NCBI GenBank assembly: GCA_018652265.1
Contig: JABICL010000030.1
Location: 6,818-70,817, forward strand
DNA: 64,000 nt
Source: Candidatus Peribacteria bacterium
GTDB lineage: Bacteria > Patescibacteriota > Gracilibacteria > Peribacterales > Peribacteraceae
Reading direction: 5' to 3'
Shown: positions 19,141-59,388 of the stretch, one piece after another
Numbering within the stretch: position 1 is the first letter of the stretch
Layout: each line of letters opens with the position of its first letter
Translations under genes and position numbers: made by a program
The notes under the pieces: generated by a model
What the model saw: the letters and a program-made list of their open reading frames with translations, nothing else
Told to the model about the DNA's origin: nothing
Databases searched by the model: none

Positions 19141-20230
19141 GCAATTTGGTCAATCACCAGAAATCGTAAATTTGGCTTCTACAAGCGAAATGGAGACGAT
19201 TTGCATCGGAAAATCGCTCGCAAGCAGCATCTATCAAAATAACACCACAATGTGGCTGTATGGGGACCTAGGAGCTGGGAAAACCACCTTCGTAAAGGGT
19301 CTTGCAGAAGGCTTAGGCATTTCTGATCCAATCACTAGTCCAACCTATGCCTTGGAGAATAGATATGGTTCGACAAGCTCACCAGAGCCTAATAATAAAT
19401 TACTACACGCAGACCTATATAGGCTTAGCTCGTCTGATGCTAAAAAATTCGTAGAAGAAACTGAAGAGTTTCCTGGCGTTAGAGTTGTGGAGTGGAGTGA
19501 AAGACTTTCCTCGTCCGAGCTCTCCTCGACCGAGCGCCAAAGCGCGAGTGGAGAGACAACCTCTCGATTCGTCCTTCGACAAGCTCAGGACTCACTCGAG
19601 GAAAGCACGATGAATAGCAAATCAATACATATAGAATTTGAAGAAATCTCTGAAACAAAACGTAATATAAAAATTACCTTCAACGATGCAAAAATCCCCT
19701 CTCGCAAGCAAATAGAAGAATGGAGAGATGATGTGAAACTTCCAGAGCATATCTGCGCTCACAGTGATGCTGTAGGAAAATTTGCTGAAGAACTTGGGCT
19801 TAAGCTTCTAAAAAAAGGAATAGTAAATCGTCCCCTACTTCTTAAGGCCGCCGGAGAAGCACATGATTTACTTAGATTTGTAGATATAGATTCATCAGAT
19901 AAAGAAGATGTTTGGAAAAAATTGGGAGAAAAATATCCCGGTCGCCACGAAGAAGCATGTGCTAATTTTCTAGAAGATGAAGGCTACAGCGAACTCTCAT
20001 CTGTCATCCGTCCACATAGCCTTCTATCACTTGATGATCCAAATGCATTCTCTACTGTGGAACAAAAAATTCTTTTCTATGCAGACAAAAGAGTACTTGG
20101 AGAAAAAGTTGTTAGCTTAGACGAAAGATTCGATGACTTTATTGTTCGTTACGGAAAAGGAGTGGAATCCGAGGATGCTAAGAGGTGGAGGAAGATTACG
20201 AAGGAGATGGAGAAGGAATTTATTTTCTAA
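19139..20230 (+). CDS. tsaE: TsaE (t6A ATPase) fused to an HD-domain phosphohydrolase
   Basis: GDLGAGKTTFVKGL P-loop, VVEWSE; C-terminal H..HD pattern (HSDAVG, EAHDLLRF); repeat C copy 1 sits in-frame in the TsaE part. Confidence 0.8.
   Translation: MQFGQSPEIVNLASTSEMETICIGKSLASSIYQNNTTMWLYGDLGAGKTTFVKGLAEGLGISDPITSPTYALENRYGSTSSPEPNNKLLHADLYRLSSSDAKKFVEETEEFPGVRVVEWSERLSSSELSSTERQSASGETTSRFVLRQAQDSLEESTMNSKSIHIEFEEISETKRNIKITFNDAKIPSRKQIEEWRDDVKLPEHICAHSDAVGKFAEELGLKLLKKGIVNRPLLLKAAGEAHDLLRFVDIDSSDKEDVWKKLGEKYPGRHEEACANFLEDEGYSELSSVIRPHSLLSLDDPNAFSTVEQKILFYADKRVLGEKVVSLDERFDDFIVRYGKGVESEDAKRWRKITKEMEKEFIF
19505..19605 (+). repeat. Repeat family C, copy 1 (in-frame in tsaE)
   Basis: 101 bp with perfect 9-bp terminal inverted repeat CTTTCCTCG/CGAGGAAAG; modules GCTCTCCTCGACCGAG, CGAGTGGAGAG, GTCCTTCGACAAGCTCAGGA; encodes LSSSELSSTERQSASGETTSRFVLRQAQDSLEES. 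Confidence 0.9.
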
Positions 20231-20552
20231 CATATCTAAGAGTATTCCCTCTTCTTAAATATATAAGAGATAAACTGTCTTCTGTAAGTTCTGAAATCGA
20301 GTATTTGAAATCCTCGTCATCCCCAGACACAATCAAGTATATCTCGTTCACAAAACTTTCGACCACAAAAGGTGCAGAGGAAATTAATTCCTCATCATAG
20401 ATATCTTTTTTCACATCACCCTCGAAAACTATCTTGCTACTGCTATCATCAGTGGAAATCCATTCTCCTTGAATGAGGTCAGATAAATTTTGATTGTCTG
20501 ATGTACAACCGATTGCCAATAAACAAAATATTAATATAAAAATTCTCTTCAT
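20220..20552 (-). CDS. Small lipoprotein
   Basis: 110 aa; lipobox LLAIGC at residues 11-16. Confidence 0.6.
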   Translation of the reverse strand: MKRIFILIFCLLAIGCTSDNQNLSDLIQGEWISTDDSSSKIVFEGDVKKDIYDEELISSAPFVVESFVNEIYLIVSGDDEDFKYSISELTEDSLSLIYLRRGNTLRYVRK

Positions 20553-20602
20553 GAAGAGAGTGTATCATCAATTTTAATAACCAAAACTGATATACTAAAA
20601 TC

Positions 20603-21214
20603 ATGCCCACAGCAGATGACATTTATATACACTGCGATGAGCTAGATAATATTCCTCCAATCTGTAAGAAGAATTGGGAGTTTGAAATCTCTCTGCTTGC
20701 GACAAAGCTAAAGCCGAATGCAAAGGTATTACAAGTTGGTTGTATGGATGGGACAAGAATTATTGCACTACTAAATACTAGACCAGATCTCGATATAACC
20801 GGGTTAGATATCGAGCAGAGCATGGTGGATAGCTGTAATGCTAATCTGGAGAAAGTTGGGAAGAAAGCCACTGTGATTCTGGGAGATATCACAAAACCAG
20901 TTCCAGTATCTGATTTTGATTATGTAATTTGTCTAAACAACACACTTGGATATATCCCCGATCAAGAAGCATCACTTAAGAATATGAAAAACTTAGGAGA
21001 AAAAGTAATCATCTCAGTATTTGGAGAAGGATTTGATGATGAAATTTCAAAATCATATTTCACATCTATCGGACTTACAGTTCAGTCTATAGATGGAGAT
21101 ATGTTTGTGATGGATGATTTCGTAAATGTACTTAGATATTCAAAAGATGTTGTAGACAACTGGGATGGGAAAATAACATACACTCCGCTTGGGTATTTTT
21201 GTGAGATTGGATAA
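20603..21214 (+). CDS. Class I SAM-dependent methyltransferase
   Basis: Motif I VLQVGCMDG; TATACT 6 nt upstream of ATG. Confidence 0.75.
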   Translation: MPTADDIYIHCDELDNIPPICKKNWEFEISLLATKLKPNAKVLQVGCMDGTRIIALLNTRPDLDITGLDIEQSMVDSCNANLEKVGKKATVILGDITKPVPVSDFDYVICLNNTLGYIPDQEASLKNMKNLGEKVIISVFGEGFDDEISKSYFTSIGLTVQSIDGDMFVMDDFVNVLRYSKDVVDNWDGKITYTPLGYFCEIG

Positions 21215-21221
21215 GCATTAA

Positions 21222-21476
21222 CTACTTCCATTCTCCATTTATTAGCTTCTCTTTCTTTTCTCTAGTCCATTTCTTGATTTGCAACTCTCTTTTTCTTGCT
21301 TCAGATTTTCCAATAAATGCATCTGAGGCATAAACAAGTTCAAAGGGCCCCTGATTAATTGCAAATCTAGAACCTTTTCCTGAGTTATGTTCTCTCATGC
21401 GCTCTTCTGCATTCGTTGTAATGCCAACATAATATCTTCCAGTATTTGCACGAGCTATGTAAACAAACCATGCCAT
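21222..21476 (-). CDS. GIY-YIG nuclease family protein (small, UPF0213-like)
   Basis: 84 aa; FVYI..GRYYVGITTN..R..EHN pattern; TATGAT 8 nt upstream of ATG. Confidence 0.85.
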   Translation of the reverse strand: MAWFVYIARANTGRYYVGITTNAEERMREHNSGKGSRFAINQGPFELVYASDAFIGKSEARKRELQIKKWTREKKEKLINGEWK

Positions 21477-21513
21477 GATAAGTAATCATAACATCTTTTG
21501 TGATCTTTCTATT

Positions 21514-21626
21514 GGGCCCTTCGATGCGCTCGCTACGCTCGCTTACTCAGGGTCATTCGATTCTATTGTAAAAAGTCGAATGGTTTACCATGAGTGAGTA
21601 TTTTGCACAGCAAAATACGAATCGAA
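21514..21626 (-). repeat. tRNA-trailer repeat family B, copy 2
   Basis: Directly follows CCA of tRNA-Ile; see copy 1. Confidence 0.85.
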
Positions 21627-21703
21627 TGGTGGGCGATGGAGGACTTGAACCTCCGACCTCGACATTATCAGTGTCGCGCTCTAACCAGCTGAGCTAATCG
21701 CCC
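21627..21703 (-). tRNA. tRNA-Ile (anticodon GAT), CCA encoded
   Basis: GGGCGAT acceptor, anticodon loop CTGATAA, T-loop TTCAAGT. Confidence 0.9.
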
Positions 21704-21851
21704 TTAATGTAAATGATATACGATTCTGTGCTTCCTGTATTCTACGATGCGAAGATGGAAGCTGCCTGCCGGCCTTAATCCATGAAATACTACGAAAAAC
21801 AGAGCAAAAAAGCTACATGTTTTGTGGATAATATTGGAGTATAATCCAATT

Positions 21852-22106
21852 ATGGATAAAAAAGTCCTCCACAATAAGCTTAATTTCACAGTTATATGTC
21901 AACCAGCAAAAGAAGGTGGATACACTGTCCATGTGCCTGCACTGCCAGGATGTCACACACAAGGAGAAACAATGGAGGAAGCTGAAAAAAATGCAAAGGA
22001 AGCAATCGAGTGTCACTTGCTTGCCATGAAAAAGATGGGAGAAGCAGTTCCAGAAGAACAAGTTGGTGCAAAAATATTCACAATAGAACTAAACTTGGAA
22101 GACTAA
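21852..22106 (+). CDS. hicB: HicB-family antitoxin
   Basis: YTVHVPALPGCHTQGETMEEA.. (UPF0150/HicB fold); TATAAT 6 nt upstream of ATG 21852; stop overlaps hicA start (TAATG). Confidence 0.8.
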   Translation: MDKKVLHNKLNFTVICQPAKEGGYTVHVPALPGCHTQGETMEEAEKNAKEAIECHLLAMKKMGEAVPEEQVGAKIFTIELNLED

Positions 22107-22327
22107 TGAGGTTACCAACTCTGAAACCATCAGAATTAATAAAAGCTCTCAAAAAAGCTGGATTCGAAGAGCTGCGCCAATCAGGAAGTCATCTTTCTCT
22201 TGGGAACAGAAATAATGGCAAAATTGTAACTGTGCCAATACACAATAGAGATCTAAAACGAGGACTACTTTTTAGTATAATTAAAGATGCTGGAATATCT
22301 CAGGAAGATTTAGCTAAACTCCTATAG
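22106..22327 (+). CDS. hicA: HicA-family mRNA interferase toxin
   Basis: 73 aa; KALKKAGFEELRQSGSHLSL.. pattern. Confidence 0.8.
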   Translation: MRLPTLKPSELIKALKKAGFEELRQSGSHLSLGNRNNGKIVTVPIHNRDLKRGLLFSIIKDAGISQEDLAKLL

Positions 22328-22333
22328 AAACAT

Positions 22334-23674
22334 TTAATACTTCTCAAAATAAGTATCTATCTCCCAGTCACTTACCTGAACTCTATACCCCTCACATTCA
22401 GCTTTCTTCGCCCGCATGAATGATTCGTAAGTATGAGGACCTAGAGCATCTCTTATAACCATATCACTTTCTAATTGTTTAAGTGCTTCATCTAGAGACT
22501 GAGGCAAAACATCAAATCCTTTTTTCTTAGCTTCATCTACAGAAAGCTCATATAGGTTCTCTTCTACAGGATCAGGTGTATACATTCTCTTTTCTATTCC
22601 ATCGAGGCCAGCAGCTAACATTACTGCAAATGCGAGATATGGATTTGCACTAGGATCTGGACAACGAAGCTCAAAGCGAGTTGCCTTTTCTCTTCCTGGT
22701 GCATAACGAGGAACACGTATAAGAGTGGAGCGATTTTTCTGTCCCCATGCGATAAATACAGGAGCTTCATATCCTGCAACTAACCTCTTATATGAATTGA
22801 CCAGAGGATTAGTGATCGCACATATAGCTTTTATATGTTTTAGCTGTCCTGCCATAAACCATTTGGCAGTTTGAGATAGTTTGTATGCATCATTTGGATC
22901 ATAAAAAATTGGAGCCTCTCCATCGAACAAACTTTGATGAACATGCATTCCGGATCCATTTATACCTTCTATAGGTTTAGGCATAAATGTTCCATATAAG
23001 TTATGTTTGTCTGCAATAGATTTGATTGTTAGCTTCATGGTCGTAGCTGCATCTGCAGTAGCAAGCGCATCTGCATATTTGAAAGCTATTTCGTGCTGCG
23101 CTGGAGCTACTTCATGATGAAGTGCCTCCACATCCAATCCAAAATCATCCAAGGCTAAAGCTATTTCTTTCCTTATACTCGTTGCCTTATCTGTTGTCTG
23201 ATCAAAATATCCGGCTGAATCATGAGGTATAGGTAGCAACTCTCCATTATCCCCTTTTTCGAACAAGAAGAATTCTAATTCTGGACCAACAAAGTATTTA
23301 TGTCCCATTTTTGCTGCTCGTTCCATTTGTTTTTTTAGTATATATCTTGGATCACCTGCAAAAGGCTGTCCATCTGGCATAAAAACATCACATATAAATC
23401 TAGCAACAACTATTCCATTTTCTTTTGTCCATGGAATTATTGCGAATGTATTTAAATCCAATTTCAGAAACATATCGCTTTCACAGATTCTCGTGAAACC
23501 CTCTACAGAAGATCCATCGAACCAAACATTATGATTTATAGCATCTTCTAGCTTGCTCACAGGAATTGTGACCGCCTTCAAATTTCCACAGATATCTGTG
23601 AATTGGAGACGAATAAATTGGACGTTTTCTCTTCGGACTGTTTCTAGTATTTGTTCTTTTGATTTGGGCTGCAT
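22334..23674 (-). CDS. glnA: Glutamine synthetase type I
   Basis: 446 aa full length; GSGMHVHQSLF, NPYLAFA motifs. Confidence 0.95.
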   Translation of the reverse strand: MQPKSKEQILETVRRENVQFIRLQFTDICGNLKAVTIPVSKLEDAINHNVWFDGSSVEGFTRICESDMFLKLDLNTFAIIPWTKENGIVVARFICDVFMPDGQPFAGDPRYILKKQMERAAKMGHKYFVGPELEFFLFEKGDNGELLPIPHDSAGYFDQTTDKATSIRKEIALALDDFGLDVEALHHEVAPAQHEIAFKYADALATADAATTMKLTIKSIADKHNLYGTFMPKPIEGINGSGMHVHQSLFDGEAPIFYDPNDAYKLSQTAKWFMAGQLKHIKAICAITNPLVNSYKRLVAGYEAPVFIAWGQKNRSTLIRVPRYAPGREKATRFELRCPDPSANPYLAFAVMLAAGLDGIEKRMYTPDPVEENLYELSVDEAKKKGFDVLPQSLDEALKQLESDMVIRDALGPHTYESFMRAKKAECEGYRVQVSDWEIDTYFEKY

Positions 23675-23725
23675 AGATGGAGACTAAAGAAGTAGCTCAC
23701 GTCTTGCAACAAAAAAGCGAAATTT

Positions 23726-25336: not shown

Positions 25337-25363
25337 TTGTTAATTATTCATTGTTAATTAATT
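25336..25363. repeat. Heptad block ATTRTTN x4 ending 1 nt before an ATG
   Basis: attgtta attattc attgtta attaatt, then t-ATG (25365). Confidence 0.8.
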
Positions 25364-27530: not shown

Positions 27531-29726
27531 GTGACAAAAGAAGATCCAATTAAAAATCTTAGAGCAAGAATATCCAGGGCACCAAAAAAGCCTGGTATTT
27601 ATCGTTGGTTAAATTCCAGTGATAATATTTTGTATGTAGGCAAAGCAAAAGACTTGCGAGCACGCATGAAGAGTTATGTGCAAAAAAATCCAGACAAATC
27701 ACTTGGGCCTTGGAAGCTTGCACTACTTAAACATATAGAAGATGTAGATTGGACTGTTACGGATAATGAGCTTGAGGCTTTAATCTTGGAAACGAATCTA
27801 ATAAAAGAACATCATCCAAAATATAACGTCCTCATGAAGGATGATAAAAATTATGTGTATGTGATGATTACCAGAGATGAGTTTCCTCATATAGAAATAG
27901 TTAGGAATATGCAGGAAATAAAAAAGGGGGCAAAAGAAGCCGTATATTTTGGCCCTTTTACGAGTTTAACTCGTATAAAACAAGCTCTGGAACTACTAGA
28001 TGAAATCTTTGGATACCGCGCCTGTAAACGGTCTGTTGAGCAATTAAACAAAGATTCCAACGTAAAATGTAAACAATGTACAGAGTCTCAGATAGGTAAA
28101 TGTAATGGGCTTTGTATGGGAAAGGTTTCAAAAAATGAATACTTCGAAAGAATAGAAGAAGTAAAAAGATTCTTCAGAGGAAATCATGAGCATATGATAA
28201 AAAAATTAAAAGAAATGATAGAAACAGCAGCAAAAAATATGAAATTTGAACGTGCGGCAAGATGTAGAGATACACTTGAATTTATAAAATCTCTATCTGA
28301 GCAACAAATTGTTTCTGGGACATCAGGAGAAGATACGGATATATTTGGTGTAGCTATTCAAGCAGATAAAGCTCAGATAGTACTGCTTCAGGAACGTAAT
28401 GGAAGAATAATCAATGAACTCAGTTTTTCTGTAAAAGGAACCGCAGATTCTTCTTTTGAAGTATTATCTCAGTTCTTGCCTCAATACTACAGAGAATCCC
28501 CTACTATCCCCAATACAATAATTGTAAGTAAAGACTTCGAGGAAACCTCATTATTTGAAAAATGGATAAATAAAGAACTTAGCTCTGACAAAAAAATCTC
28601 GATAAAAATTCCAGAAAGAGGCAAAAAATCTAAGCTTCTCAAAATGGCAGAAGAAAATGCAAAAGAGAAAGCAGCAAAAGAACTTGCAAGCTGGGAATCT
28701 GCAGCACACAAAATAGAAACTGCACTAAATGAGCTTAAAGATGCACTTAAATTAAAAGAAAAACCAAAACGAATAGAATGTTATGACATATCACACATGG
28801 GAGGCACGGAAACTGTTGGTAGTATGGTTGTTTTTGTAAATGGTAAATCAAAAAACGATCAATACAGATCTTTTACTATAAAAACAATGAAAGATGGGGA
28901 AATAGATGATTATAAAGCGATACAAGAAGTTTTTACTCGTAGATTAAGACATTTAGCTAAGGGAATTAAAGAGGAAGAAACTGCCTGGGCAAAGAACAAA
29001 ATTTCTTTTTCTAAAGCCAAAAAGGATGAGATAGAAAATATAAAAGAATTTATGGAACAGGAAGAAGAACACCTAAGTCCAGAAGATTTGAATCACGAAG
29101 ATTTCATTGTCGGAAAAATTGGAGATAAAATCATATCTTTCGGCAGACTTCTAAAACACTCTCCAAATGAAATAGAAATTAAGTCAGCTTGGGTTCATCC
29201 AAGTCACAGAAATAAAGGTCTAGGAACTTTCATGGTTAGAAAACTACTGCAAAAAGCTAACAAAATGAAATTTAAGAAAGTTTATATAAGAATATTTGTT
29301 GAAATGGAGGAATTCTATTCGTCTATGGGATTTGTAAGAGTAAAAACACTTCCTCCAGTTATAGGTAAAAAAGTGGCAGAAATAAGAAAAAATCATCCAG
29401 ACATTAATGGCACAACAATGGTATACATTTTCTCTGAAAATAAAGAAGATTCTTCACTTGGAACAAAGCCTGATCTAATAGTTATAGATGGAGGAAAAGG
29501 GCAATTGGGGGTAGGAGTAAAAGCTCTAAAGGCAGCAAAACTCAAGATTCCAATAATATCGCTCGCTAAACGAGAAGAAGAGGTTTTTGTGCCTAGAGTG
29601 GCAAAACCAATTCAATTTCCAAAAGACTCCGAATCTCTATTTATACTTATGAGACTTAGAGATGAAGCGCATAGATTTGCGAATAGACATAGGGAGAAGA
29701 AAATGAAGAACTCAGTTTTGGGATAG
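27531..29726 (+). CDS. uvrC: Excinuclease ABC subunit C with an inserted GNAT acetyltransferase-like domain; no C-terminal HhH2
   Basis: GIY-YIG (GIYRW..LYVGKAKDLRARM), Cys cluster, UVR helix pair, endonuclease domain (YDISHMGG .. VIDGGKGQL .. DEAHRFA); about 170 aa between RRLRHL and KPDLIVIDGG contain VHPSHRNKGLGTFMVRKLL; TATAAT 6 nt upstream of GTG. Confidence 0.88.
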   Translation: MTKEDPIKNLRARISRAPKKPGIYRWLNSSDNILYVGKAKDLRARMKSYVQKNPDKSLGPWKLALLKHIEDVDWTVTDNELEALILETNLIKEHHPKYNVLMKDDKNYVYVMITRDEFPHIEIVRNMQEIKKGAKEAVYFGPFTSLTRIKQALELLDEIFGYRACKRSVEQLNKDSNVKCKQCTESQIGKCNGLCMGKVSKNEYFERIEEVKRFFRGNHEHMIKKLKEMIETAAKNMKFERAARCRDTLEFIKSLSEQQIVSGTSGEDTDIFGVAIQADKAQIVLLQERNGRIINELSFSVKGTADSSFEVLSQFLPQYYRESPTIPNTIIVSKDFEETSLFEKWINKELSSDKKISIKIPERGKKSKLLKMAEENAKEKAAKELASWESAAHKIETALNELKDALKLKEKPKRIECYDISHMGGTETVGSMVVFVNGKSKNDQYRSFTIKTMKDGEIDDYKAIQEVFTRRLRHLAKGIKEEETAWAKNKISFSKAKKDEIENIKEFMEQEEEHLSPEDLNHEDFIVGKIGDKIISFGRLLKHSPNEIEIKSAWVHPSHRNKGLGTFMVRKLLQKANKMKFKKVYIRIFVEMEEFYSSMGFVRVKTLPPVIGKKVAEIRKNHPDINGTTMVYIFSENKEDSSLGTKPDLIVIDGGKGQLGVGVKALKAAKLKIPIISLAKREEEVFVPRVAKPIQFPKDSESLFILMRLRDEAHRFANRHREKKMKNSVLG

Positions 29727-30135: not shown

Positions 30136-30231
30136 ATGTCATGCTGAGCCGTGCTGAGCAAGTTGAACTTGAAGCAGAGCGACAAAGTCGCGATGCTTAA
30201 GTTCTACGAGTCGAAGTACGTGTCGAAGCAT
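30136..30231 (+). repeat. Repeat family A, copy 4
   Basis: 96 bp between convergent 29743..30129 and pnp. Confidence 0.9.
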
Positions 30232-39709: not shown

Positions 39710-39863
39710 TTGATGGATTCTATCAAAATTGCAAATTAGCGACAGTCCAACTTTCGCTCTTGGTGGCTTGCCAGCCGAAGTCGTAGCGGATCGTTCAGGA
39801 TAAACTTCTCATGTTCAATCACATATAATCGCGGCGTAGTCCGCCATGGCGGACGAAGCCGGA

Positions 39864-47011: not shown

Positions 47012-47046
47012 AGTGGGTAGTGGTTAGTGGGTAGTGGTTAGTCACC
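47012..47046. repeat. Heptad block AGTGGNT x4 (+1), 8 nt upstream of the rplJ ATG
   Basis: agtgggt agtggtt agtgggt agtggtt agtcacc. Confidence 0.85.
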
Positions 47047-47097: not shown

Positions 47098-47276
47098 ATA
47101 AAAAAACTGGTCTTCGGGACGTCCGGGAGACCAGCGAGGCACACGGCACGAATCAGTAAGCCAGAGCCGACTAGTCGATGCTGTATACCTCGGGAAGACT
47201 TACTTTCAGCCCTGCGGGCCTATCGCTTCCGGTCTTCGGACTGCGAGTATTCTACTTATATACACATCACTGTCAA
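47098..47276 (-). promoter_or_regulatory. Promoter, GC-rich structured leader and intrinsic terminator upstream of rplJL (L10-leader-like attenuator)
   Basis: TTGACA (47271-47276) -16 nt- TAGAAT (47249-47254); about 110 nt GC-rich leader; CTGGTCT..AGACCAG hairpin (47107-47133) + TTTTTTT. Confidence 0.6.
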
Positions 47277-47306
47277 GATATTTGTACAGAAACCCCAAAT
47301 AATTGC

Positions 47307-48050: not shown

Positions 48051-48194
48051 TTGACACTAATTTTTGAAAAAGTAGTATGAGGTCAATGTTCGCAAGAACA
48101 CTCGCAGTTGGCCTCGTCGTCGCAGTCGTCCATTAGGACCGCACGAGTTTGCTAACTGAATATTCCAACCTCGTGCAAAACGAGGTTTTTTGTT
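48051..48194 (+). promoter_or_regulatory. Promoter, leaderless mini-ORF and terminator/antiterminator upstream of 48213..48467 and pcrA
   Basis: TTGACA (48051-48056) -16 nt- TAGTAT (48073-48078); GCACGAG (48141-48147) complementary to CTCGTGC (48170-48176), the 5-prime arm of terminator AACCTCG-tgcaaaa-CGAGGTT-TTTTTG (48167-48194). Confidence 0.65.
48086..48136 (+). CDS. Leaderless mini-ORF MFARTLAVGLVVAVVH (candidate leader peptide or small hydrophobic peptide)
   Basis: ATG 7 nt after the -10 box, the same spacing as 20+ genes here; stop codon 5 nt before the antiterminator strand. Confidence 0.5.
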   Translation: MFARTLAVGLVVAVVH

Positions 48195-48212
48195 TATTAC
48201 CAATTCATAATC

Positions 48213-48467
48213 ATGGGAATAGATCACATAAAAACGGAAGATGATCTCTCAAAGAGTCAACGAGATCTAATACTAGGATTGACTAATCCTTGCAATGGGA
48301 CAGTCTCGCCCGAAATTTTCTCTAACATAATGATTCGCATGCAAGCAGCTAGCGAAAAGGCTGGCAATGTCCTAGCTCTATGTGACTTAAAACATGTTGT
48401 AAAGAAGGTCACAGGAAAATCAGTATCACATAAACGAACAGATGGTACTATGAGTGCCGGTGAATAA
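48213..48467 (+). CDS. Hypothetical protein (84 aa)
   Basis: ORF overlapping the pcrA start by 14 nt. Confidence 0.5.
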   Translation: MGIDHIKTEDDLSKSQRDLILGLTNPCNGTVSPEIFSNIMIRMQAASEKAGNVLALCDLKHVVKKVTGKSVSHKRTDGTMSAGE

Positions 48468-50718
48468 AGATAGCAATTTAATTTTTGAAGGCCTAAACGA
48501 ATCGCAAACAAAAGCCGTAAACACTTTAAAGGGTCCTCTGCTGATCCTTGCAGGAGCTGGTAGCGGAAAGACTCGTACTCTCACGCATAGGATCGCAAAT
48601 CTGATTCATAACGGAGTAGAACCATGGAGAATACTTGCTGTCACTTTTACAAACAAAGCAGCGAATGAAATGAAAGACAGGATCAGCGCTCTTCTAAAGC
48701 TTACAAATGCAAACAGCGACAACATGCCTGCCACCGGCACATTTCACTCTATATGTGTTCGCATACTTAGAAGGGATATAGAAAAAATTGGAAGAGATAG
48801 AAACTTCGTGATCTACGATACTTCAGATCAAGAAACTCTTATGAAAGGAATACTGAAAGATATGAATATCGACTCAAAAGAACTAAAGCCAAAAGCAGCA
48901 CTTGGACAAGTTGGAAAATTTAAGAGTGAAGCAATGAATACAAAAGAAGTAGCAGAGCAAGCCACATCAGATTGGATGGCTAGGATGGTAAAAATTTATT
49001 CCACTTATCAAAATAAACTTAAAGAAAACAATGCATTGGACTTCGATGATCTTATTCTGGAATGTATAAGACTATTTCGCGAAGCTCCAGATGTATTAGA
49101 TAGATATCAAAACACATGGAAATATCTAAATGTAGATGAGTACCAAGATACAAATCATGCTCAATATATATTTATATCCATGCTTGCAGGTAAATATAGG
49201 AATCTGTGTGTAATAGGTGATCCAGATCAATCTATATACGCATTCCGTGGAGCAGACATAAGAAACATTTTGGAATTCAACGAAGAATACCCAGATGCAG
49301 TCTCCATAAAGCTGGAACGCAATTACAGATCAACTCAACAAATACTAGATTCATCCGATGCAGTAATTGCAGCAAATCCAGGAAGACCACAAAAGAAAAT
49401 GTGGACGCATAGAGCAGATGGAAACTTATTATCTATTCACGAAGTGAGAGACGAAAAAGATGAAGCAGAAGAAACTGTGAATAATGTTATGAGCAAACTC
49501 GCAAATGGCACATCACTAAACGAACAAGTGGTGCTATACAGAACAAATGCACAATCCAGACATTTCGAAGAAGCTTGTATGCGAAATGCACTTCCCTACC
49601 GGATAGTAGGAGGAGTGAAGTTCTACGCTAGAAGAGAAGTAAAAGATCTTCTCGCATATTTATATGCAATGCATAACCCCCAAGACGCTTTATCTCTACT
49701 TCGAGTAATAAATGTTCCTGCTAGGAAAATTGGTAAGACAACTATAGAAAAAATAAATGCATTTTGTCAGGAGCATGAGATGTCATTTTGGTCTGCCCTA
49801 AAAAATATTAATTCCATAGATCATATAAATGAATCAACTAAAAATCGAATCTCTGAATTTGCTGCACTCATAGAAAAATATAAAGAAAGAAGATTACAAA
49901 TTTCTGTATCTCAGCTTTCCACAGAATTATTAGAAGAAATACAAATGGAAAAATGGTTAAGGGATGACACAACAGAAGGAGAAACTAGATGGGAAAATAT
50001 AGGAGAACTTATAAACGTAATGCATAAGTACGATGGCCTTGAGTCTGAACAATCCTTTGTGAGTTTTCTAGAAGAAGTAGCACTAGTATCTGAAGTAGAC
50101 AAAATGAATGACGCACGTGATGATGCTCTTACTTTGATGACTCTTCATCTGTGCAAAGGTCTGGAATTTGGCCATGTAGTAATTGCAGGATGCGAAGAAG
50201 GAATCTTCCCTCATTCAAATTGCATGTTCGACAAAGAACAATTAGAAGAAGAGCGTCGTATTATGTATGTAGGAATGACCAGAGCAAAAGATCAACTTAC
50301 TCTAATGCACGCAAATAGCAGAACTGTATGGGGTGATATGCAAGCAAACTCTGCATCTCGCTTCTTAGACGACATTCCGGAAAAGCTTGTAGAGAGAAAG
50401 GGAGATATATTTAGTAGAATGCAACTCTCCTCGAGCGGGCTCTCCTCGACCGAGCGTCGCAACGCGAGTGGAGAGGCATCGCGAACGTCGAGAGGTTTAT
50501 CGGATCTAGATTTCAACCAAGACATAAACTCTTCAGAAGAAGACTTCAATCAGGATCCTTCTCATGATTTTGAATCCGGTGCTCGCATACATCATCCTAT
50601 ATTTGGCGATGGAACTATTATGTCTTTGAGTGGTGACATAGCAGAGATACGATTCGATTCCGGAAATGTAAAAAAGATTGCCTTAAACGTTGTGAAGGTT
50701 GAGGTGATTCAGAAATAG
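48454..50718 (+). CDS. pcrA: ATP-dependent DNA helicase PcrA/UvrD
   Basis: GAGSGKTRT Walker A, DEYQDT, full SF1 motif set, C-terminal HHPIFGDGTI.. tail domain; repeat C copy 2 in-frame near the C-terminus. Confidence 0.92.
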   Translation: MPVNKDSNLIFEGLNESQTKAVNTLKGPLLILAGAGSGKTRTLTHRIANLIHNGVEPWRILAVTFTNKAANEMKDRISALLKLTNANSDNMPATGTFHSICVRILRRDIEKIGRDRNFVIYDTSDQETLMKGILKDMNIDSKELKPKAALGQVGKFKSEAMNTKEVAEQATSDWMARMVKIYSTYQNKLKENNALDFDDLILECIRLFREAPDVLDRYQNTWKYLNVDEYQDTNHAQYIFISMLAGKYRNLCVIGDPDQSIYAFRGADIRNILEFNEEYPDAVSIKLERNYRSTQQILDSSDAVIAANPGRPQKKMWTHRADGNLLSIHEVRDEKDEAEETVNNVMSKLANGTSLNEQVVLYRTNAQSRHFEEACMRNALPYRIVGGVKFYARREVKDLLAYLYAMHNPQDALSLLRVINVPARKIGKTTIEKINAFCQEHEMSFWSALKNINSIDHINESTKNRISEFAALIEKYKERRLQISVSQLSTELLEEIQMEKWLRDDTTEGETRWENIGELINVMHKYDGLESEQSFVSFLEEVALVSEVDKMNDARDDALTLMTLHLCKGLEFGHVVIAGCEEGIFPHSNCMFDKEQLEEERRIMYVGMTRAKDQLTLMHANSRTVWGDMQANSASRFLDDIPEKLVERKGDIFSRMQLSSSGLSSTERRNASGEASRTSRGLSDLDFNQDINSSEEDFNQDPSHDFESGARIHHPIFGDGTIMSLSGDIAEIRFDSGNVKKIALNVVKVEVIQK
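50424..50495 (+). repeat. Repeat family C, copy 2 (partial, in-frame in pcrA)
   Basis: ctctcctcgagcgggctctcctcgaccgagcgtcgcaacgcgagtggagagg..cgtcgagagg; encodes LSSSGLSSTERRNASGEASRTSRG. Confidence 0.85.
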
Positions 50719-51426: not shown

Positions 51427-51723
51427 ACAAAAATACCTCCGACCTTTACAGGGGAGGTGCTTGTGAGACTAGTTCTTGTTTAGGTTACACACATCGGCAC
51501 TCTCCCTCTGTAAAGAAGGAAAAGAAGAAGCCAAAAAAGAAAGTGTTCCTTTGCAAGATGCGATCAATTTAACACCATGAGAGAAAATGTCAACTTTATG
51601 AAAGATATTTTTACAAATCCTGATAGTATCAGACTACAGCTCTGTTGTACTTATGTGATGACCCCGCCTCCAGAAATGGAGTACATCACGGACAGTGCAG
51701 CAGAGCTATTTTTTCAGTAACTT

Positions 51724-51819
51724 ATGTCATGCTTAGCCGTACTGAGCGAACTGAACTTGAAGCAGAGCGACGAAGTCACGATGCTTAAGTTCAGTGAGAC
51801 GAAGTACGTGTCGAAGCAC
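51724..51819 (+). repeat. Repeat family A, copy 5
   Basis: 96 bp; supplies the last 9 codons and stop of idi (..STRTSSH). Confidence 0.9.
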
Positions 51820-52315
51820 TATTAATTCCCTCCACAAACCACGGAGCATATTCCTGTGAGTTATTTTCCATATCTGTGAGCAACTCCTCTACTTTTACCC
51901 ACTTCCACTCAGATACCTCTGCAGGATCTGCGGAAATTTCAACCTCATCAACTTCTCCTACCAGAATACTCAAATACTCATGTTCAGCACCTTTTCCACT
52001 TGAATCCTCTGCAAAATAAACAAAATTCCCAGCTAACTTCAGATTAGAACAAGTAAATCCCATCTCTTCATTTAACCTTCTTTTTGCAGTCACAATCACA
52101 TCCTCACTCTCTACTTCATGACTACAGCACGTATTAGCCCAAAATCCACCCCATAGCATTTTCTCATCGGATCTCCTCTGCACCAGAAGCTCTGTGCCCG
52201 AATTTCTAAATATATACACAGAGAATGCCTTATGCAGCAATCCTTCTTTATGAGCTTTCACTTTTTCACAAACTTCTATGTTCTCTCCCTGTTCATTACA
52301 AATAATCACATTCAT
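51791..52315 (-). CDS. idi: Isopentenyl-diphosphate delta-isomerase, type 1 (Nudix fold)
   Basis: LHKAFSVYIF, WANTCCSH, Nudix-like EE region; start set to ATG 52315 (TATATT 7 nt upstream). Confidence 0.85.
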   Translation of the reverse strand: MNVIICNEQGENIEVCEKVKAHKEGLLHKAFSVYIFRNSGTELLVQRRSDEKMLWGGFWANTCCSHEVESEDVIVTAKRRLNEEMGFTCSNLKLAGNFVYFAEDSSGKGAEHEYLSILVGEVDEVEISADPAEVSEWKWVKVEELLTDMENNSQEYAPWFVEGINSASTRTSSH

Positions 52316-53075: not shown

Positions 53076-53954
53076 ATGTCACGAGTACCCGAATTTTGTA
53101 GCAAAAATGGAATCCAACTAAACAAAGGCTTAGGACAGAATTTTTTGGTAGATGAAGCTGTACTACAAAAGATATTAGAGACTGCAAATATAAAAGATAG
53201 TGACTTCGTACTCGAGATAGGTGCTGGAATTGGAGTTTTGACTTCTGAACTTGTAAAAAGAGCAGGAAGGATTATGGCTGTAGAGATAGATGGGAAGCTG
53301 GTTCCTTTGATAAATAAATATGTAAACACTCACGAGCTCTCCTCGAGTGAGTCCGCCAGCGGGCGGGCGAATCGAGAGGCCGCCTCTCCACTCGTCCTTC
53401 GACAAGCTCAGGAATCGGTCGAGGAAAGCAATAAGCTGAATATTATTAATGCAAATGCATTGGAAGTTGATTTTCCAAACGAGCCTTACAAAATAGTCGC
53501 AAACATTCCATATCACATAACATCCCCTCTACTTCGTCATGCATTTTTGGAATCAGAGGTTTATCCAAAATCTATGACACTACTAATACAACACGAAGTA
53601 GCAGAAAAAATTTGTGATGAGAAAAGCAAAGGCATGCTTACGATCTTAGTCGGACTATTTGGTAAACCTACACTTATACAAAAAGTCCCACCAGAAGCAT
53701 TCCTTCCTCCACCAAAAGTAAATTCAGCAATTCTTCACATCGATTGCTTCGATTCCCCTATCGCAACTAAGGAACAAATAGAAAAAATCTTCCAGCTCAC
53801 AAAAGTAGCATTTGGGAAAAAGAGAAAAATGCTTAGAAACTCCATAGGAGAAATAGATGGAGGTATGGAAATACTAGAGAAAGCTGGAATTGAAGCGACA
53901 AGGAGACCACAAGAGCTTTCTATTGAGGAGTGGATTAAATTGGCTAACCAATAA
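53076..53954 (+). CDS. rsmA: 16S rRNA (adenine1518/1519-N6)-dimethyltransferase
   Basis: GQNFL, EIGAGIGVLT, NIPYHITSP motifs; TAAAAT 6 nt upstream of ATG; repeat C copy 3 in-frame. Confidence 0.92.
   Translation: MSRVPEFCSKNGIQLNKGLGQNFLVDEAVLQKILETANIKDSDFVLEIGAGIGVLTSELVKRAGRIMAVEIDGKLVPLINKYVNTHELSSSESASGRANREAASPLVLRQAQESVEESNKLNIINANALEVDFPNEPYKIVANIPYHITSPLLRHAFLESEVYPKSMTLLIQHEVAEKICDEKSKGMLTILVGLFGKPTLIQKVPPEAFLPPPKVNSAILHIDCFDSPIATKEQIEKIFQLTKVAFGKKRKMLRNSIGEIDGGMEILEKAGIEATRRPQELSIEEWIKLANQ
53329..53429 (+). repeat. Repeat family C, copy 3 (in-frame in rsmA)
   Basis: gagctctcctcgagtgag..ctctccactcgtccttcgacaagctcaggaatcggtcgaggaaag; encodes ELSSSESASGRANREAASPLVLRQAQESVEES. Confidence 0.88.
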
Positions 53955-53978
53955 GAAACAAGATCCAAGCCGAAGGTA

Positions 53979-54091: not shown

Positions 54092-54094
54092 GGG

Positions 54095-55012: not shown

Positions 55013-55833
55013 ATACATCACCTAAAATATCGGCAATTATTCTCAACTACAAAACTCCTCATGAAACACTCGCATGCGTTGATGCATTACTTGCACAAAC
55101 AATCTCAGAGGAAATAGAAATAATTATCGTAGATAATGACTCCAGAGATTCTTCTGTAGAAATTCTTAGAAGTCTTCTTGGAAAAGAAAAGCCAATCAAA
55201 TTAATGCAAACAGAAAAGAATATTGGATTCTCTGGAGGTAATAATCTAGGAGTAAAAACTGCATCTGGAGATTACATACTAATCGTAAATCCAGATACTA
55301 CACTCGAAAAGGATTCTCTAGAAAAGATGTTCAATTTCTTAAATAGTAGAGATGACATAGCAATAGTGGGACCACAACTTGTATTTCCAAGTGGGACCAT
55401 AAGAGATTCATACAGAACATTTCCTACTATTCTAGACATAATCATAAAGCGCACTCCACTAAGTATTTTCTTTCCAAAGAGAATGCGTGACTATTTGCAA
55501 TGGGACAAAAGTCCGTATGAAACACGTGAAGTCGATTGGCTTGTGGGTGCATGCATGTTTATAAAAAAGGACTTTTTCGAAAAAATTGGCGGATTTGACG
55601 AAAGATTCTTCTTGTTCTTCGATGATACGGATTTATGCAAAAGATGTAGATTAAATGGTAAAAAGGTTGTCTATTTCCCCGAAGCAAAAGGGCATGATAG
55701 CCAGAATCGCCTTAGCTCAGGCGGAATGCTGTCATTTCTATGGAAAAAAACTGTGAGAATTCACATTATCAGTGCCATCAAATACTTCTGGAAATGGAGA
55801 AAAATTCTTGCTCGGAAAGCCTCATTACAATAA
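55009..55833 (+). CDS. Glycosyltransferase family 2
   Basis: SAIILNYKT..VDNDSRDSS..GFSGGNN..DTDLCKR; overlaps the previous stop. Confidence 0.85.
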   Translation: MNTSPKISAIILNYKTPHETLACVDALLAQTISEEIEIIIVDNDSRDSSVEILRSLLGKEKPIKLMQTEKNIGFSGGNNLGVKTASGDYILIVNPDTTLEKDSLEKMFNFLNSRDDIAIVGPQLVFPSGTIRDSYRTFPTILDIIIKRTPLSIFFPKRMRDYLQWDKSPYETREVDWLVGACMFIKKDFFEKIGGFDERFFLFFDDTDLCKRCRLNGKKVVYFPEAKGHDSQNRLSSGGMLSFLWKKTVRIHIISAIKYFWKWRKILARKASLQ

Positions 55834-55845
55834 CCTTTCCCTGCT

Positions 55846-56502
55846 ATGTCTCAAATCACACTAGAAATCACACCACGAACCAAAGAAAAGAAAGTAAAAG
55901 ATCTTAGGGAGCAAGGCACTGTGCCATGCGTCTTATATGGACATGAAATAGAAAATCAACAAATAGAATGTGATGAACAAGAATTTCACAAGACTTTTGT
56001 ACGCGCAGGAGAAAGTACAATCATAGATTTAGACATGGGAGGGAAAAAGACATCTGTTCTTATACACAAAATAGATCGAGATCCAGTAACAGACAGATGT
56101 ATACACATAGATTTCTTTGCTCCAAATATGAAAAAAGAGATAACTACACACATTTCTATAGTTGCAAACGGAGAAGTTCCTGCAGTAAAAGAGCTTGGCG
56201 GAGTACTCGTAACTCATAGAGATTCCATAGAAGTAAGATGTCTTCCAAAAGATCTTCCACATGAAATAGTGGTTGATCTATCTAAACTTGCAGAAATTGG
56301 TGATTCAATCTCCGTATCAGACTTAAGCTTAGGAGAGAATGTTGCAGCTCAACTCGAAGATGATGAAATAATCTTTGCAGTAGAAGCCCCTAGAAAAGAA
56401 GAGGTTGTCGAGAAACCAGCAGAAGGCGAAGAAGGAGAAGCTACAGAGGAAGGAGAAAAGAAAGAAGGAGAAGCTGCAGAAGAAGGAGAAAAGAAAGAGT
56501 AA
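55846..56502 (+). CDS. rplY: 50S ribosomal protein L25 (Ctc form) with acidic repeat tail
   Basis: ..LREQGTVPCVLYG.. N-terminal L25 domain, second beta domain, EGEKKEGEAAEEGEKKE tail. Confidence 0.88.
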   Translation: MSQITLEITPRTKEKKVKDLREQGTVPCVLYGHEIENQQIECDEQEFHKTFVRAGESTIIDLDMGGKKTSVLIHKIDRDPVTDRCIHIDFFAPNMKKEITTHISIVANGEVPAVKELGGVLVTHRDSIEVRCLPKDLPHEIVVDLSKLAEIGDSISVSDLSLGENVAAQLEDDEIIFAVEAPRKEEVVEKPAEGEEGEATEEGEKKEGEAAEEGEKKE

Positions 56503-56513
56503 CCTTAACTCAA

Positions 56514-57572
56514 ATGCAGATTAAATCTAAAATCCCTTGGCTGGTTGCGTGTGTAGCGTGCGCTGCATATATGTTTTTTGTGCCATACGTCCCACACATA
56601 CCTAAAGCACCTAAGATCCCTGCAATTAGCACAGCACTTCCTACTACAGATGCTTTACTAATAAGCTCCTCTAGTCACATCTCTCCACAGATAATTTCAT
56701 ATCTTCCACTTGTTCCATCATCTTCTGGAAAGAAAAAATCTGTGCAATTAGTTGCTTCCATGATAGAAAACCACATGGAGTCGCGTCCTCAGAAAGGATT
56801 AAAAGATGCAATCATAGTTTTTGAGCTCATAGTAGAAGGTGATATATCTAGATTCTTGGCAATTTTTAGAGCCGATAGATTACCAAAAATTATAGAGCCT
56901 ATCAGATCACTTAGACCTCATTTTGTAAGTGTCGTTGCTCCATTTAGACCTCTCATGCTCCATGCGGGAGGAAGTGCAATCGCATATGAGGCTCTTGGAA
57001 GAAATCCTCAGATCCAAAACCACGATGCTATTAGATACGATGGTGAAACTTACGAAAGAGATCCAAAAAAAGATGCTCCTCACAATCTTATGATCACTCG
57101 TAAGGCAATCGAATCTGTTATAGAGAAAAAGAATCTACTAGATTTTGATCTTCCTGTATTCCCAACAACATATGATTTCGTATCTCCGAAGGATTATGAA
57201 GTCGCCAAGAAGATTAATTTAAGTTTTGGAAGTCCAAATCACAACGTAACTTACACATACAGTCCATTACGAGGATCCTCTTATGTACGCTCTATAAAAG
57301 GCGCAGATAAACAAGCAAGACCAAAGAATGTATTAGTTTTGGAAACTCACATAGAAGGATTTGGAGAGCCAAACACAATTCCTTGGACCAAAACATTTGG
57401 GAATGGAAAGCTCTTACTTTTCTCTAAAGGAAAAGTGTGGAGAGGAACATGGGAACGAGAAAAAGGCCAAGTCTTCAGGTTCTATGATGATTCTGGAAAT
57501 GTATTACCACTTGAAAGCGGACAGATATGGATAACTATGGTTCCAGATCTTGGTAGAGCTAGCTGGGAATAA
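56514..57572 (+). CDS. DUF3048 domain protein
   Basis: N-terminal anchor; MIENHMESRPQKGL..IVFELIVEGDISRFLAIF pattern. Confidence 0.7.
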   Translation: MQIKSKIPWLVACVACAAYMFFVPYVPHIPKAPKIPAISTALPTTDALLISSSSHISPQIISYLPLVPSSSGKKKSVQLVASMIENHMESRPQKGLKDAIIVFELIVEGDISRFLAIFRADRLPKIIEPIRSLRPHFVSVVAPFRPLMLHAGGSAIAYEALGRNPQIQNHDAIRYDGETYERDPKKDAPHNLMITRKAIESVIEKKNLLDFDLPVFPTTYDFVSPKDYEVAKKINLSFGSPNHNVTYTYSPLRGSSYVRSIKGADKQARPKNVLVLETHIEGFGEPNTIPWTKTFGNGKLLLFSKGKVWRGTWEREKGQVFRFYDDSGNVLPLESGQIWITMVPDLGRASWE

Positions 57573-58314
57573 GCTTGCTCACAACCTCTTCTACCAGCTT
57601 CTTCATAAGCCCATTTATTTCTGCAATCTCGGATTCCTTGGCTTTTAGTGTCCCCTCTTCTGTATAGAGTCCATGATTTACCTCTATCTGAATTCCAGGA
57701 ACCAGGAAGTGAGGGATTCGCTTTCTGTGACAGTGTCTGCCTAAAATATATCTACCACTATATGGATCATTTATAGATACGCTATAACCGTGACGCTCAA
57801 AGAAATCACGGAAAAATACTGTGTGCTCGCGAGTGCATGAGGTCCAATTCACATTTCCTAGATTTATATCTTTACGAGGCTTGCCTTCATCTGGCTTTCC
57901 TGGAGGGCCTACTGGAGTATAGCTATGGCAATCGATTAAAAATCTTGCATCTGCCATATAGGCATCTATCTCTGCATGAAAAGGATCATGATATTTCTTT
58001 ATAAGACTTTCAAATTGTTTTTCTGTTGGTTCAATTTTGTATATCTGCTCTCCATTCCAAGTTTTATGAACCATCACACCATCTTTACCTCCTTCGTATT
58101 CTTTACTTATATCATCAGGTGCTCGATTAACATCCAAAAGCACGCGAGAGACACCTTCACTCTTTACAGTATAGGCATCAGGGATTTTATATATACGATC
58201 TGTATATAGATCAGAATAAGGGAACAGCTCTTCTTCCGAGAGAAGTACATTCTCTTTCAGTTCTTCTGGGATACTGAACGAATAGTGCGGTAATGACAGA
58301 ATTATTGGATGCAC
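57559..58314 (-). CDS. N-formylglutamate amidohydrolase family protein
   Basis: LSLPHYS.., LLDVNRAPDD, LIDCHSY, DINLGN pattern; GTG start. Confidence 0.65.
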   Translation of the reverse strand: MHPIILSLPHYSFSIPEELKENVLLSEEELFPYSDLYTDRIYKIPDAYTVKSEGVSRVLLDVNRAPDDISKEYEGGKDGVMVHKTWNGEQIYKIEPTEKQFESLIKKYHDPFHAEIDAYMADARFLIDCHSYTPVGPPGKPDEGKPRKDINLGNVNWTSCTREHTVFFRDFFERHGYSVSINDPYSGRYILGRHCHRKRIPHFLVPGIQIEVNHGLYTEEGTLKAKESEIAEINGLMKKLVEEVVSKLIPS

Positions 58315-58378
58315 GGTTTAATAATGTTTATGGCTATAAGCATTCCCCGTTCGCCACGGCGGATAAACTAAGTGGGAG

Positions 58379-59215
58379 TTACTTGGATATTTTGAATTTG
58401 TTTTCGAATAATTTTTTGGCAGGTATTACAACTGTGCTATCACCACTTTTTATAACAACACCTGTAATCAAGAATTTTACGATTTCCCCCTTAATGTCAC
58501 ATTCACAATCTATATGATCTCCTATTTTCAAATGTGATTTAAGCTGCATACATGTAATAGCATTTTCCAAAAATGGCTTAGCAGCGAGTGCGCCTGCAAA
58601 ACTGATAGCAATAAATAGTATTGCGAGTATTCGTGCTGCATTCATAGTAATTACAGATACATCGAAACCTATTTGCTGCAATGCAATCAGACAAACAAAT
58701 ATTACTATAACCACCTGTACTACGGCACCAAGCAATTCAGCATATGAAATTCCTGCCTTAGCACAAAAAGTAGAAACAACGTCCCGTAAAAACCTTCCAA
58801 GAATTAAACCTATTACAAGTATAAATAGTCCGACTATAAGATGTGGAATATATGAAACTATTGCACCTATCGCATCAGACACAGCTCCAAGCTGGAGAAT
58901 ATCTGTTATAAGAAGTAGTGCAGCTAAAATTATTAACCAATAGATCAAAAAACAAAAAATACTAGATACACTTCTCTTTATTCCTACCATTCTTAGCATT
59001 CTGTCTACATTTACCTTGTTTGCAATTTTATCTAGACCCAAAACATCAAAAATATGCTTCACAAGTTTGCATGCAATACGTGCAACTATAATGCTCACAA
59101 TGAGCACCAAGAGTGCAAGTATTATTTGCGGAACCACTTCTACAATTTTGTCTGATGTTTGAGATAAAAGTTCAGAAGTTGTTTCTGAGAGCTGCTTTTT
59201 CATAGCGGAAAACAT
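58379..59215 (-). CDS. Membrane protein with conserved-TM-helix repeats (MscS-associated type)
   Basis: 278 aa; repeated TM helix + ..LGLDK../..AGISYA.. loops; TGcTATAAT 7 nt upstream of ATG. Confidence 0.5.
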   Translation of the reverse strand: MFSAMKKQLSETTSELLSQTSDKIVEVVPQIILALLVLIVSIIVARIACKLVKHIFDVLGLDKIANKVNVDRMLRMVGIKRSVSSIFCFLIYWLIILAALLLITDILQLGAVSDAIGAIVSYIPHLIVGLFILVIGLILGRFLRDVVSTFCAKAGISYAELLGAVVQVVIVIFVCLIALQQIGFDVSVITMNAARILAILFIAISFAGALAAKPFLENAITCMQLKSHLKIGDHIDCECDIKGEIVKFLITGVVIKSGDSTVVIPAKKLFENKFKISK

Positions 59216-59268
59216 ATTGTCTATTATAGCACATGGAGCAGTTTTTGTTTACCTACGATATATTTAGA

Positions 59269-59303
59269 AGTGGCTAGTGGGCAGTGGGCAGCGGATAGCA
59301 AAC
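59269..59303. repeat. Heptad block AGTGGNN x3-4 (+1)
   Basis: agtggct agtgggc agtgggc agcggat agcaaac, directly abutting repeat C copy 4. Confidence 0.8.
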
Positions 59304-59388
59304 AGCTCTCCTCGACCGAGTTCGCCGCGGCGAACGAGTGGAGAGGTAGCCTCTCGACATTCGCCTTTGGCGAATGCTCGAGGAAAGC
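59304..59388 (+). repeat. Repeat family C, copy 4 (intergenic)
   Basis: agctctcctcgaccgag-ttcgccgcggcgaa-cgagtggagagg..cctctcga..ctcgaggaaagc. Confidence 0.88.

Follow-up and report, generated by a model that had tools for sequence, protein, structure and literature searches.

We report a GC-rich palindromic repeat, here called Family C, in a stretch of 64,000 nucleotides from a Candidatus Peribacteria bacterium (GenBank assembly GCA_018652265.1, contig JABICL010000030.1, positions 6,818 to 70,817), referred to below as the window. Our data favor, with a probability of about 0.7, the reading that Family C is a non-autonomous element that spreads as DNA and whose in-frame copies are tolerated within protein loops, as an analogue of the Rickettsia palindromic elements (RPEs). 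Copies lie in the housekeeping genes tsaE, pcrA, and rsmA (c1, c2, and c3) and in an intergenic region (c4) (Table 1). The repeat had first been noticed from the sequence alone, and this observation is now confirmed: all four copies exist at, or a few bases from, the coordinates given in that original prediction, and c1 does have the perfect 9-bp terminal inverted repeat attributed to it, with CTTTCCTCG at 19505-19513 matched by CGAGGAAAG at 19597-19605. The description of the copies had to be amended in places. The rsmA copy placed at 53329-53429 is present, but its boundaries were off, the core being 53336-53430, and the pcrA copy, said to share the family modules, does belong to Family C but is a half element, consisting of one 37-nt hairpin module within another hairpin.

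The modules of Family C occur in the window far more often than expected from shuffled sequence. GCTCTCCTCGA, with at most one mismatch allowed, yielded 9 matches against 0.93 expected, a number reached in none of 100 shuffles, and CTCGAGGAAAG and CGAGTGGAGAG occurred 6 and 4 times (1.03 and 0.52 expected, respectively). Gapless repeat finding revealed 84% identity between c1 and c3 over 64 nt and between c1 and c2 over 55 nt, and all three genic copies resemble the intergenic c4 at the DNA level. An nhmmer profile built from the three full copies matched exactly four places in the window, c1 to c4. The pcrA half copy had an E-value of 4e-5, and the full copies, from which the model had itself been built, had E-values of 1e-20 to 1e-25; the same profile found no further copies in 14 kb of additional same-species sequence. 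The full element measures 85-95 nt (72-102 nt across copies) and has no coding capacity of its own, and the GC content of the copies is 59-67%, compared with 38% for the genome and 36-41% for the window. Since c1 to c4 are identical in contigs of at least five independent assemblies (ERZ4200978, ERZ27237545, ERZ4200980, GCA_018649385.1, and GCA_018655505.1), we consider the copies real and fixed in the species.

The full element spans GCTCTCCTCGA to TCGAGGAAAGC, which form an 11-nt terminal inverted repeat (GCTYTCCTCGA...TCGAGGARAGC). Ten of its 11 positions pair in every copy; the eleventh pairs only in two copies from a distant genome with 54% GC (see below), in which we also found a single compensatory change (n = 1) of CCTCGA/TCGAGG to CTTCGA/TCGAAG. 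As DNA or RNA, the element is predicted to fold into a cloverleaf, with an outer stem enclosing three hairpins. Hairpin 1 is variable in sequence (GCGC-CAAA-GCGC, TCCGCC-AGCG-GGCGGG, or TTCGCC-GC-GGCGAA), hairpin 2 has the form CGAGTGGAGAG-N4-CCTCTCGA and is inverted in c3 relative to c1 and c4, and hairpin 3 is GTCCT-TCGACAAGCTC-AGGAC in c1 and c3. In an alignment of five copies from the two genomes, 93% of the cells pair, compared with 38-48% for slid partners, and both-sided (compensatory) changes are seen at 8 pairs. Because the structure was derived from these same five sequences, the paired percentage is favored by the procedure, but the compensatory changes are not. A search of Rfam returned no family over any copy, either at the gathering score or at E <= 1.

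Family C is modular, in that its hairpin modules are found separately and nested within each other. A 37-nt unit, GCTCTCCTCGACCGAGCG-N6-CGCGAGTGGAGAG, is common to c1 and c2 (19519-55 and 50439-50475, with 33 of 37 positions identical), and in c2 this unit is nested inside the outer hairpin CTCTCCTCGAGCG...CGCGAACGTCGAGAG. Both copies also carry a 15-nt tandem repeat of the 5' end; in c1, a 14-nt partial duplicate of that end (19505-19518) precedes the full core (19519-19606).

Pfam matches bear out the three host genes named in the original prediction, and its proposal that the inserts fall in loops and linkers agrees with alignments to PDB structures (9zw5, KsgA, and 1pjr) and with the predicted local distance difference test (pLDDT) scores of AlphaFold models. 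The TsaE insert (amino acids 123-157) separates residues that adjoin in 9zw5 and is modeled with a pLDDT of 49-64, compared with 86-93 for its flanks. Within it, a helix is predicted at residues 141-157, corresponding to the VLRQAQDSLEES part. In RsmA, insert c3 cuts the RrnaAD match into two pieces, and residues 88-120 separate two blocks that align to KsgA structures (pLDDT of ~50 for the insert and >89 for the flanks). On 1pjr, the PcrA insert maps to the linker that joins the C-terminal domain to the helicase core. Together with the ortholog alignments described below, the structural alignments and models place each of the genic copies in a variable loop or a linker.

The translations likewise agree with the claim that the genic copies are read in one element frame without a stop, as c1 to c3 have one orientation and share the pattern LSS(S/T)E...(L/V)EES. 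The lack of stops is weak evidence by itself, since the element is open in 4 of its 6 frames. All five genic copies (three in the window and two in the 54% GC genome) nonetheless use a single frame in the 3' part (RQAQ/(L/V)EES), and 4 of the 5 share the frame of the 5' end. Assuming that the four open frames are equally likely, such agreement has a chance of ~(1/4)^3 to (1/4)^4, the exponent varying with whether the tsaE copies of the two genomes are taken as a single event. In addition, the host frame is the sole frame that gives a non-basic, proline-free peptide: its products carry a net charge of -2 to -3 with 0-1 prolines, compared with mostly +4 to +6 (one +1) and 2-5 prolines for the other open frames. 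The frame bias is as expected from survival under selection on the peptide. The inserts are probably translated, judging from the reading frames. These frame statistics, as well as the copy number and the genic fraction, are drawn from ~180 kb of sequence from four genomes.

Comparison with orthologs upheld the view that the segments are insertions. RsmA has 27-33 more residues than 17 orthologs, all at one variable loop, and TsaE orthologs mostly have a short loop after EWSERL, several of them hosting quite different inserts there. The closest relative is a sister species with a syntenic arrangement, a 77% identical RsmA, and ~80-85% nucleotide identity. Its pcrA has the outer hairpin only (CTCTCATCGAGCGTTCGCCCATCGCGAACGTCGAGAG), to which the nested 37-nt module adds a net 33 nt in the window, and its rsmA has four GGACCGC heptamers exactly where the window has c3. 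At the two remaining sites, the sister species carries a member of another repeat family (Family A, described below): ATGTCATGCT...GTGTCGAAGCA stands in-frame at the same tsaE loop as c1, and the slot of c4 is occupied by a Family A element with the same left flank (a heptamer array) and the same right flank (CAAC). No Family C site is thus empty in the sister species, since each holds another repeat. Where length differences between the two species could be measured, all were multiples of 3 (33, 45, and 54 nt).

Clean pairs of filled and empty sites do exist for other repeats. A segment of ~200 nt that includes Family A (51605-51823) is absent from the sister species, and an unrelated 45-nt GC-rich hairpin lies in-frame in an M23 peptidase gene (17503-19140, minus strand), at a site that is cleanly empty in the sister species. 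For these other families, turnover after the two species separated is thus shown. The core of this hairpin, GTCCGCCNNGGCGGAC, recurs at 39839-39854 adjoining a tRNA-Leu, and the case shows that in-frame insertion also occurs for another repeat family.

The window RsmA and TsaE group with proteins of Candidatus Peregrinibacteria/Peribacteria and Patescibacteria, and by this grouping, the host is a Peregrinibacteria-like member of the candidate phyla radiation (CPR). Judging from sequence comparison, Family C is older and wider than the host species. In the distant Peregrinibacteria genome mentioned above (L132; 54% GC, with a TsaE 51% identical to ours), a relative of Family C lies in-frame at the same loop of tsaE, and a second relative forms a 36-amino-acid in-frame insert in recG that neither the window nor the sister species has. 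In the same genome, a LytR_cpsA_psr gene holds an in-frame piece resembling Family A. A third Peregrinibacteria genome (L137, 6502-9045) encodes a PcrA with two long repeat-derived inserts, of which one falls within the 2B domain and the other within the tail linker that hosts c2 (with peptides such as VIPSDFARSEAESKIVSRD and VTLSGA...SAQHD). Furthermore, the window tsaE holds a second, shorter in-frame insert (Table 1). Because several families and genomes show such inserts, in-frame colonization of loops by GC-rich palindromes is general in this clade. A GC-rich stretch near the C-terminal end of the window RecG gene (14669-14784), tried as a further insert, turned out to be ordinary RecG sequence.

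Broader searches of DNA and of proteins left the census no larger. A scan of genome contigs with TCCTCGA-N55-85-TCGAGGARAGC, a pattern that is too loose, returned only chance matches in GC-rich genomes; CGAGTGGAGAGNNNNCCTCTCGA gave 4 matches in metagenome contigs, all by chance and in contigs of 58-70% GC; and the 64 stretches found in viral contigs with a 16-mer of the terminal repeat included no Family C according to nhmmer. The 34-amino-acid peptide of c1 had no match at E <= 0.001 among 1.84 billion representative proteins, although so short a query has no power. A 381-amino-acid concatenation of all the open frames of c1, c3, and c4 and of c2-independent variants, compared with 5.8 billion proteins, retrieved only the window TsaE and RsmA (42-46 bits).

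We propose that Family C is a non-autonomous GC-rich palindrome that propagates as DNA in the genomes of Peregrinibacteria, mobilized in trans by some enzyme or by a hairpin-dependent process. Copies landing in coding DNA would survive only if they kept the reading frame, used the one frame that encodes a hydrophilic, slightly acidic, and proline-free peptide, and lay at a tolerant loop or linker. The host protein would then carry 11-34 extra residues, probably disordered or forming a short helix. The differences between species suggest that the elements move, and we infer that they are mobile in trans and neutral or selfish rather than functional. New modules also appear to land in or beside existing palindromes. 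Insertion into such palindromes, or exchange at them, is suggested at a handful of sites by slot sharing, nesting, the flipped hairpin, and the GCT...AGCA ends that Families A and C have in common.

Several observations weigh against this proposal. Only 4 copies of Family C were counted in ~78 kb of this genome, and no copy has a clean empty counterpart, the sister species holding another repeat at all four sites. Target-site duplications were found at none of c1 (GA/AC flanks), c3 (GA/AA), and c4 (CA/AC), and the annotated genes of the window include no transposase, RAYT (the tyrosine transposase associated with repetitive extragenic palindromic [REP] elements), or Y1 gene. The only transposase gene seen nearby, an IS30-like gene (HTH_38 + rve) that is situated 6.7 kb past the window end, at the end of a same-species contig (L134, 12-983), has ends unlike those of Family C, and no parent insertion sequence (IS) with matching ends was found in the window or in 14 kb of extensions. 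Large protein searches also uncovered no further genic copies, but they have power only for near-identical ones, and the 381-amino-acid search is for that reason not evidence against others.

Alternatively, the palindromes might be cassettes exchanged or rebuilt in place without transposition. Template switching, slippage, and short-tract gene conversion from other copies would let hairpins form and lengthen at a few permissive sites, with one family overwriting another in a given slot. Such a process would account for the Family A element with identical flanks in the c4 slot of the sister species, the exchange of Families A and C at the tsaE loop, the pcrA sites that differ by a module nested in a common outer hairpin, the flipped middle hairpin of c3, and the 15-nt tandem duplications of the 5' end in c1 and c2, and both families start with GCT, end with AGCA, and lack a target-site duplication. 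However, ordinary recombination needs more than the 4-6 nt of terminal homology available, the modules of 37-64 nt that are nearly identical at unrelated loci would still have to be copied between loci, and other families show clean filled and empty pairs; we regard rebuilding in place as unlikely. A bolder idea, tentative and somewhat doubtful in our view, is that insertion of small palindromes in Peregrinibacteria is not random and that existing palindrome slots receive elements by structure-directed delivery or exchange without target-site duplication, with Families A and C and the heptamer arrays replacing each other at the same nucleotides. If true, the same few loops (TsaE after EWSERL, the PcrA tail linker, and the RsmA loop) would be recolonized repeatedly across the phylum, in a cassette turnover of an undescribed kind that continually rewrites the surface loops of core proteins and uses modules, such as CCTTCGACAAGCTCAGG, common to very distant bacteria and viral contigs.

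Could the inserts instead be kept for a function, either as an mRNA cloverleaf that slows ribosomes where domains meet or sets mRNA stability or as a flexible or interacting peptide segment? The compensatory changes that preserve hairpins within coding DNA, the fixation of the copies in all assemblies of the species, the location of the TsaE-HD and PcrA inserts at domain boundaries or linkers, and the helix predicted for the VLRQAQDSLEES part would fit such a role. Yet the same loops hold unrelated repeats or nothing in close relatives, which argues that no particular insert sequence is required; moreover, insert pLDDT is low and the intergenic copy has the same structure, and we find a retained function quite improbable. 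Still less credible is that the inserts remain untranslated, either because they are cut out of the mRNA or because ribosomes skip them, as happens in T4 gene 60 and the byp elements of Magnusiomyces mitochondria. GC-rich hairpins in an AT-rich genome do recall byp and GC-cluster elements, and the rRNA genes of CPR bacteria carry intervening sequences, but every genic copy is open and in one frame, the measured length differences are multiples of 3, and at c1 there is neither a stop after the take-off codon nor a matched pair of take-off and landing codons. We therefore rejected translational bypass; as frame and length are always kept, neither mRNA removal nor bypass is needed or indicated. 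We likewise rejected pseudogenization of the host genes, as well as inteins or introns, for which the inserts are too short and open in frame. Finally, the inserts are rich in Ser, Glu, and Arg and occupy variable regions, as ancestral low-complexity linkers or assembly artifacts might; this explanation deserves hardly any weight, being contradicted by the absence of the segments from orthologs, by DNA identity among unrelated genes and with the intergenic copy, and by identical sequences in the independent assemblies. Spread of a non-autonomous palindrome at the DNA level, with survival in tolerant loops, remains the reading that we favor, and the interpretation of the inserts in the original prediction is supported.

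Table 1. Coordinates of Family C copies, host genes, and other repeats (window positions unless a locus is named).
Feature	Coordinates	Strand	Description
Family C c1	19505..19606	+	In-frame in tsaE-HD; encodes LSSSELSSTERQSASGETTSRFVLRQAQDSLEES
Family C c2	50424..50495	+	In-frame in pcrA; half element
Family C c3	53336..53430	+	In-frame in rsmA; full element; encodes LSSSESASGRANREAASPLVLRQAQESVEES
Family C c4	59305..59389	+	Intergenic; between heptamer array and flank CAAC
tsaE fused to HD-like domain	19139..20230	+	Pfam TsaE; insert c1 after EWSERL, amino acids 123-157
pcrA/uvrD-type helicase	48454..50718	+	Pfam UvrD-helicase/UvrD_C; c2 in linker before C-terminal domain
rsmA/ksgA	53076..53954	+	Pfam RrnaAD; c3 flanked in the model by helix 73-92 and strand 121-124
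Second tsaE insert	19367..19393	+	27 nt, in-frame, GSTSSPEPN; hairpin 3 motif TTCGACAAGCTCA; absent from sister species
Hairpin in M23 peptidase gene	17915..17959	-	Unrelated 45-nt GC-rich hairpin, in-frame; clean empty site in sister species
Family A copy	4221-4312	-	
Family A copy	5811-5903		
Family A copy	11975-12067		
Family A copy	30136-30230		
Family A copy	51724-51818		
Heptamer array	13335-13366		
Heptamer array	47012-47043		
Heptamer array	59262-59300		
Heptamer array	63640-63711		
Heptamer array	~10250-10300		Locus L001
Hairpin 3 motif	19575-19589		
Hairpin 3 motif	53398-53412		
Hairpin 3 motif	19369-19383		

Family A (ATGTCATGCTGAGCCG...CGTGTCGAAGCAT, ~93 nt) has five intergenic copies in the window with 88-97% identity, and an aminotransferase open reading frame (ORF; 4329-5822) ends inside the copy at 5811, from which it takes its final codons and its TGA stop. 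The tandem heptamer arrays, (AGTGGKC)n and (CTTGTCA)4, recall the STRR (short tandemly repeated repetitive) sequences of cyanobacteria, and their unit differs between the two species at orthologous sites. The 17-mer of the hairpin 3 loop, CCTTCGACAAGCTCAGG, was found in >120 viral contigs of IMG/VR (32-72% GC), usually as CCCTTCGACAAGCTCAGGGCGAACGG, where by a rough estimate a handful would be expected by chance; it looks like a palindrome arm common to very distant bacteria. Immediately 3' of both tRNA-Arg(tct) and tRNA-Ile(gat) stands a further repeat of ~115 nt (7313-7427 and 21515-21630; 72-93% identity), which contains a CCTTCGA...GCTCAGG hairpin.

Three other features of the window were recorded. 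The UvrC protein (27531-29726, plus strand; 731 amino acids) carries a GNAT acetyltransferase domain (residues ~497-605) within its RNase H endonuclease domain, whose match is in two parts, and the UvrC of the sister species is called as 633 amino acids. A segment of ~190 nt upstream of rplJ (47100-47290) is almost identical in the sister species, well over the background of ~80%, and has no Rfam match; it is probably a ribosomal protein L10 leader. Just upstream of pcrA, ~360 nt with an 84-amino-acid ORF (48088-48440) are absent from the sister species.

Selfish DNA carried in-frame by the genes of essential proteins is a textbook curiosity, familiar chiefly from Rickettsia. Our analysis supports an independent RPE-like family in a CPR bacterium rather than a member of the RPE family. 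The original prediction had proposed such independence, and it agrees with the Peregrinibacteria/CPR host and with full-text literature searches, which found no description of Family C-like elements in CPR bacteria and nothing relevant on the hairpin 3 motif or its peptides. Like Family C, RPEs are short multicopy palindromes able to form a stable secondary structure, a large share of them lie in-frame, in one conserved frame, within unrelated housekeeping genes, and no cognate transposase is known. RPE inserts occupy positions compatible with the protein fold, as those of Family C do (PMC10969869). Family C differs in that its host belongs to an unrelated phylum, CPR/Peregrinibacteria, it is shorter (85-95 nt vs ~100-150 bp) and GC-rich in an AT-rich genome, it folds in prediction as a three-hairpin cloverleaf within an 11-nt terminal inverted repeat, it is modular and nested, and the copy number seen is small. 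We set it apart as an analogue because its host is Peregrinibacteria-like and Rfam holds no matching family, and we would expect no sequence relatedness to RPEs.

Other known systems share part of this profile. [quoted passage not shown] Family C (4 copies in the window and 2 in the 54% GC genome) is likewise small, non-coding, and bounded by terminal inverted repeats; unlike MITEs, it showed no target-site duplication, and the window and the 14 kb of extensions yielded no parent IS with matching ends. REPs and bacterial interspersed mosaic elements (BIMEs) are GC-rich extragenic palindromes that cluster and serve as targets for other insertions, which the nesting at pcrA and the sharing of slots recall. 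REPs, however, are 20-40 nt long, extragenic, and linked to RAYTs, whereas Family C is 85-95 nt long and genic in 3 of 4 copies, with no RAYT in the window. The GC clusters, double-hairpin elements, and byp elements of fungal mitochondria are also GC-rich mobile hairpins in AT-rich compact genomes, some of them in protein-coding genes, but these systems are organellar, and byp elements disrupt the frame and are bypassed by ribosomes, while Family C keeps the frame.

An independent and structurally different family in CPR bacteria shows that in-frame insertion of palindromes is a recurrent phenomenon among host-dependent genomes that are small and AT-rich. It is one way to account for the many loops of odd length and stretches that resist alignment in CPR core proteins, and a warning that such stretches, like small ORFs called across intergenic copies, may be repeat-derived. 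The slots shared with the sister species, in turn, provide a testable handle on how palindromes without an enzyme of their own move, including RPEs and REP-like elements.

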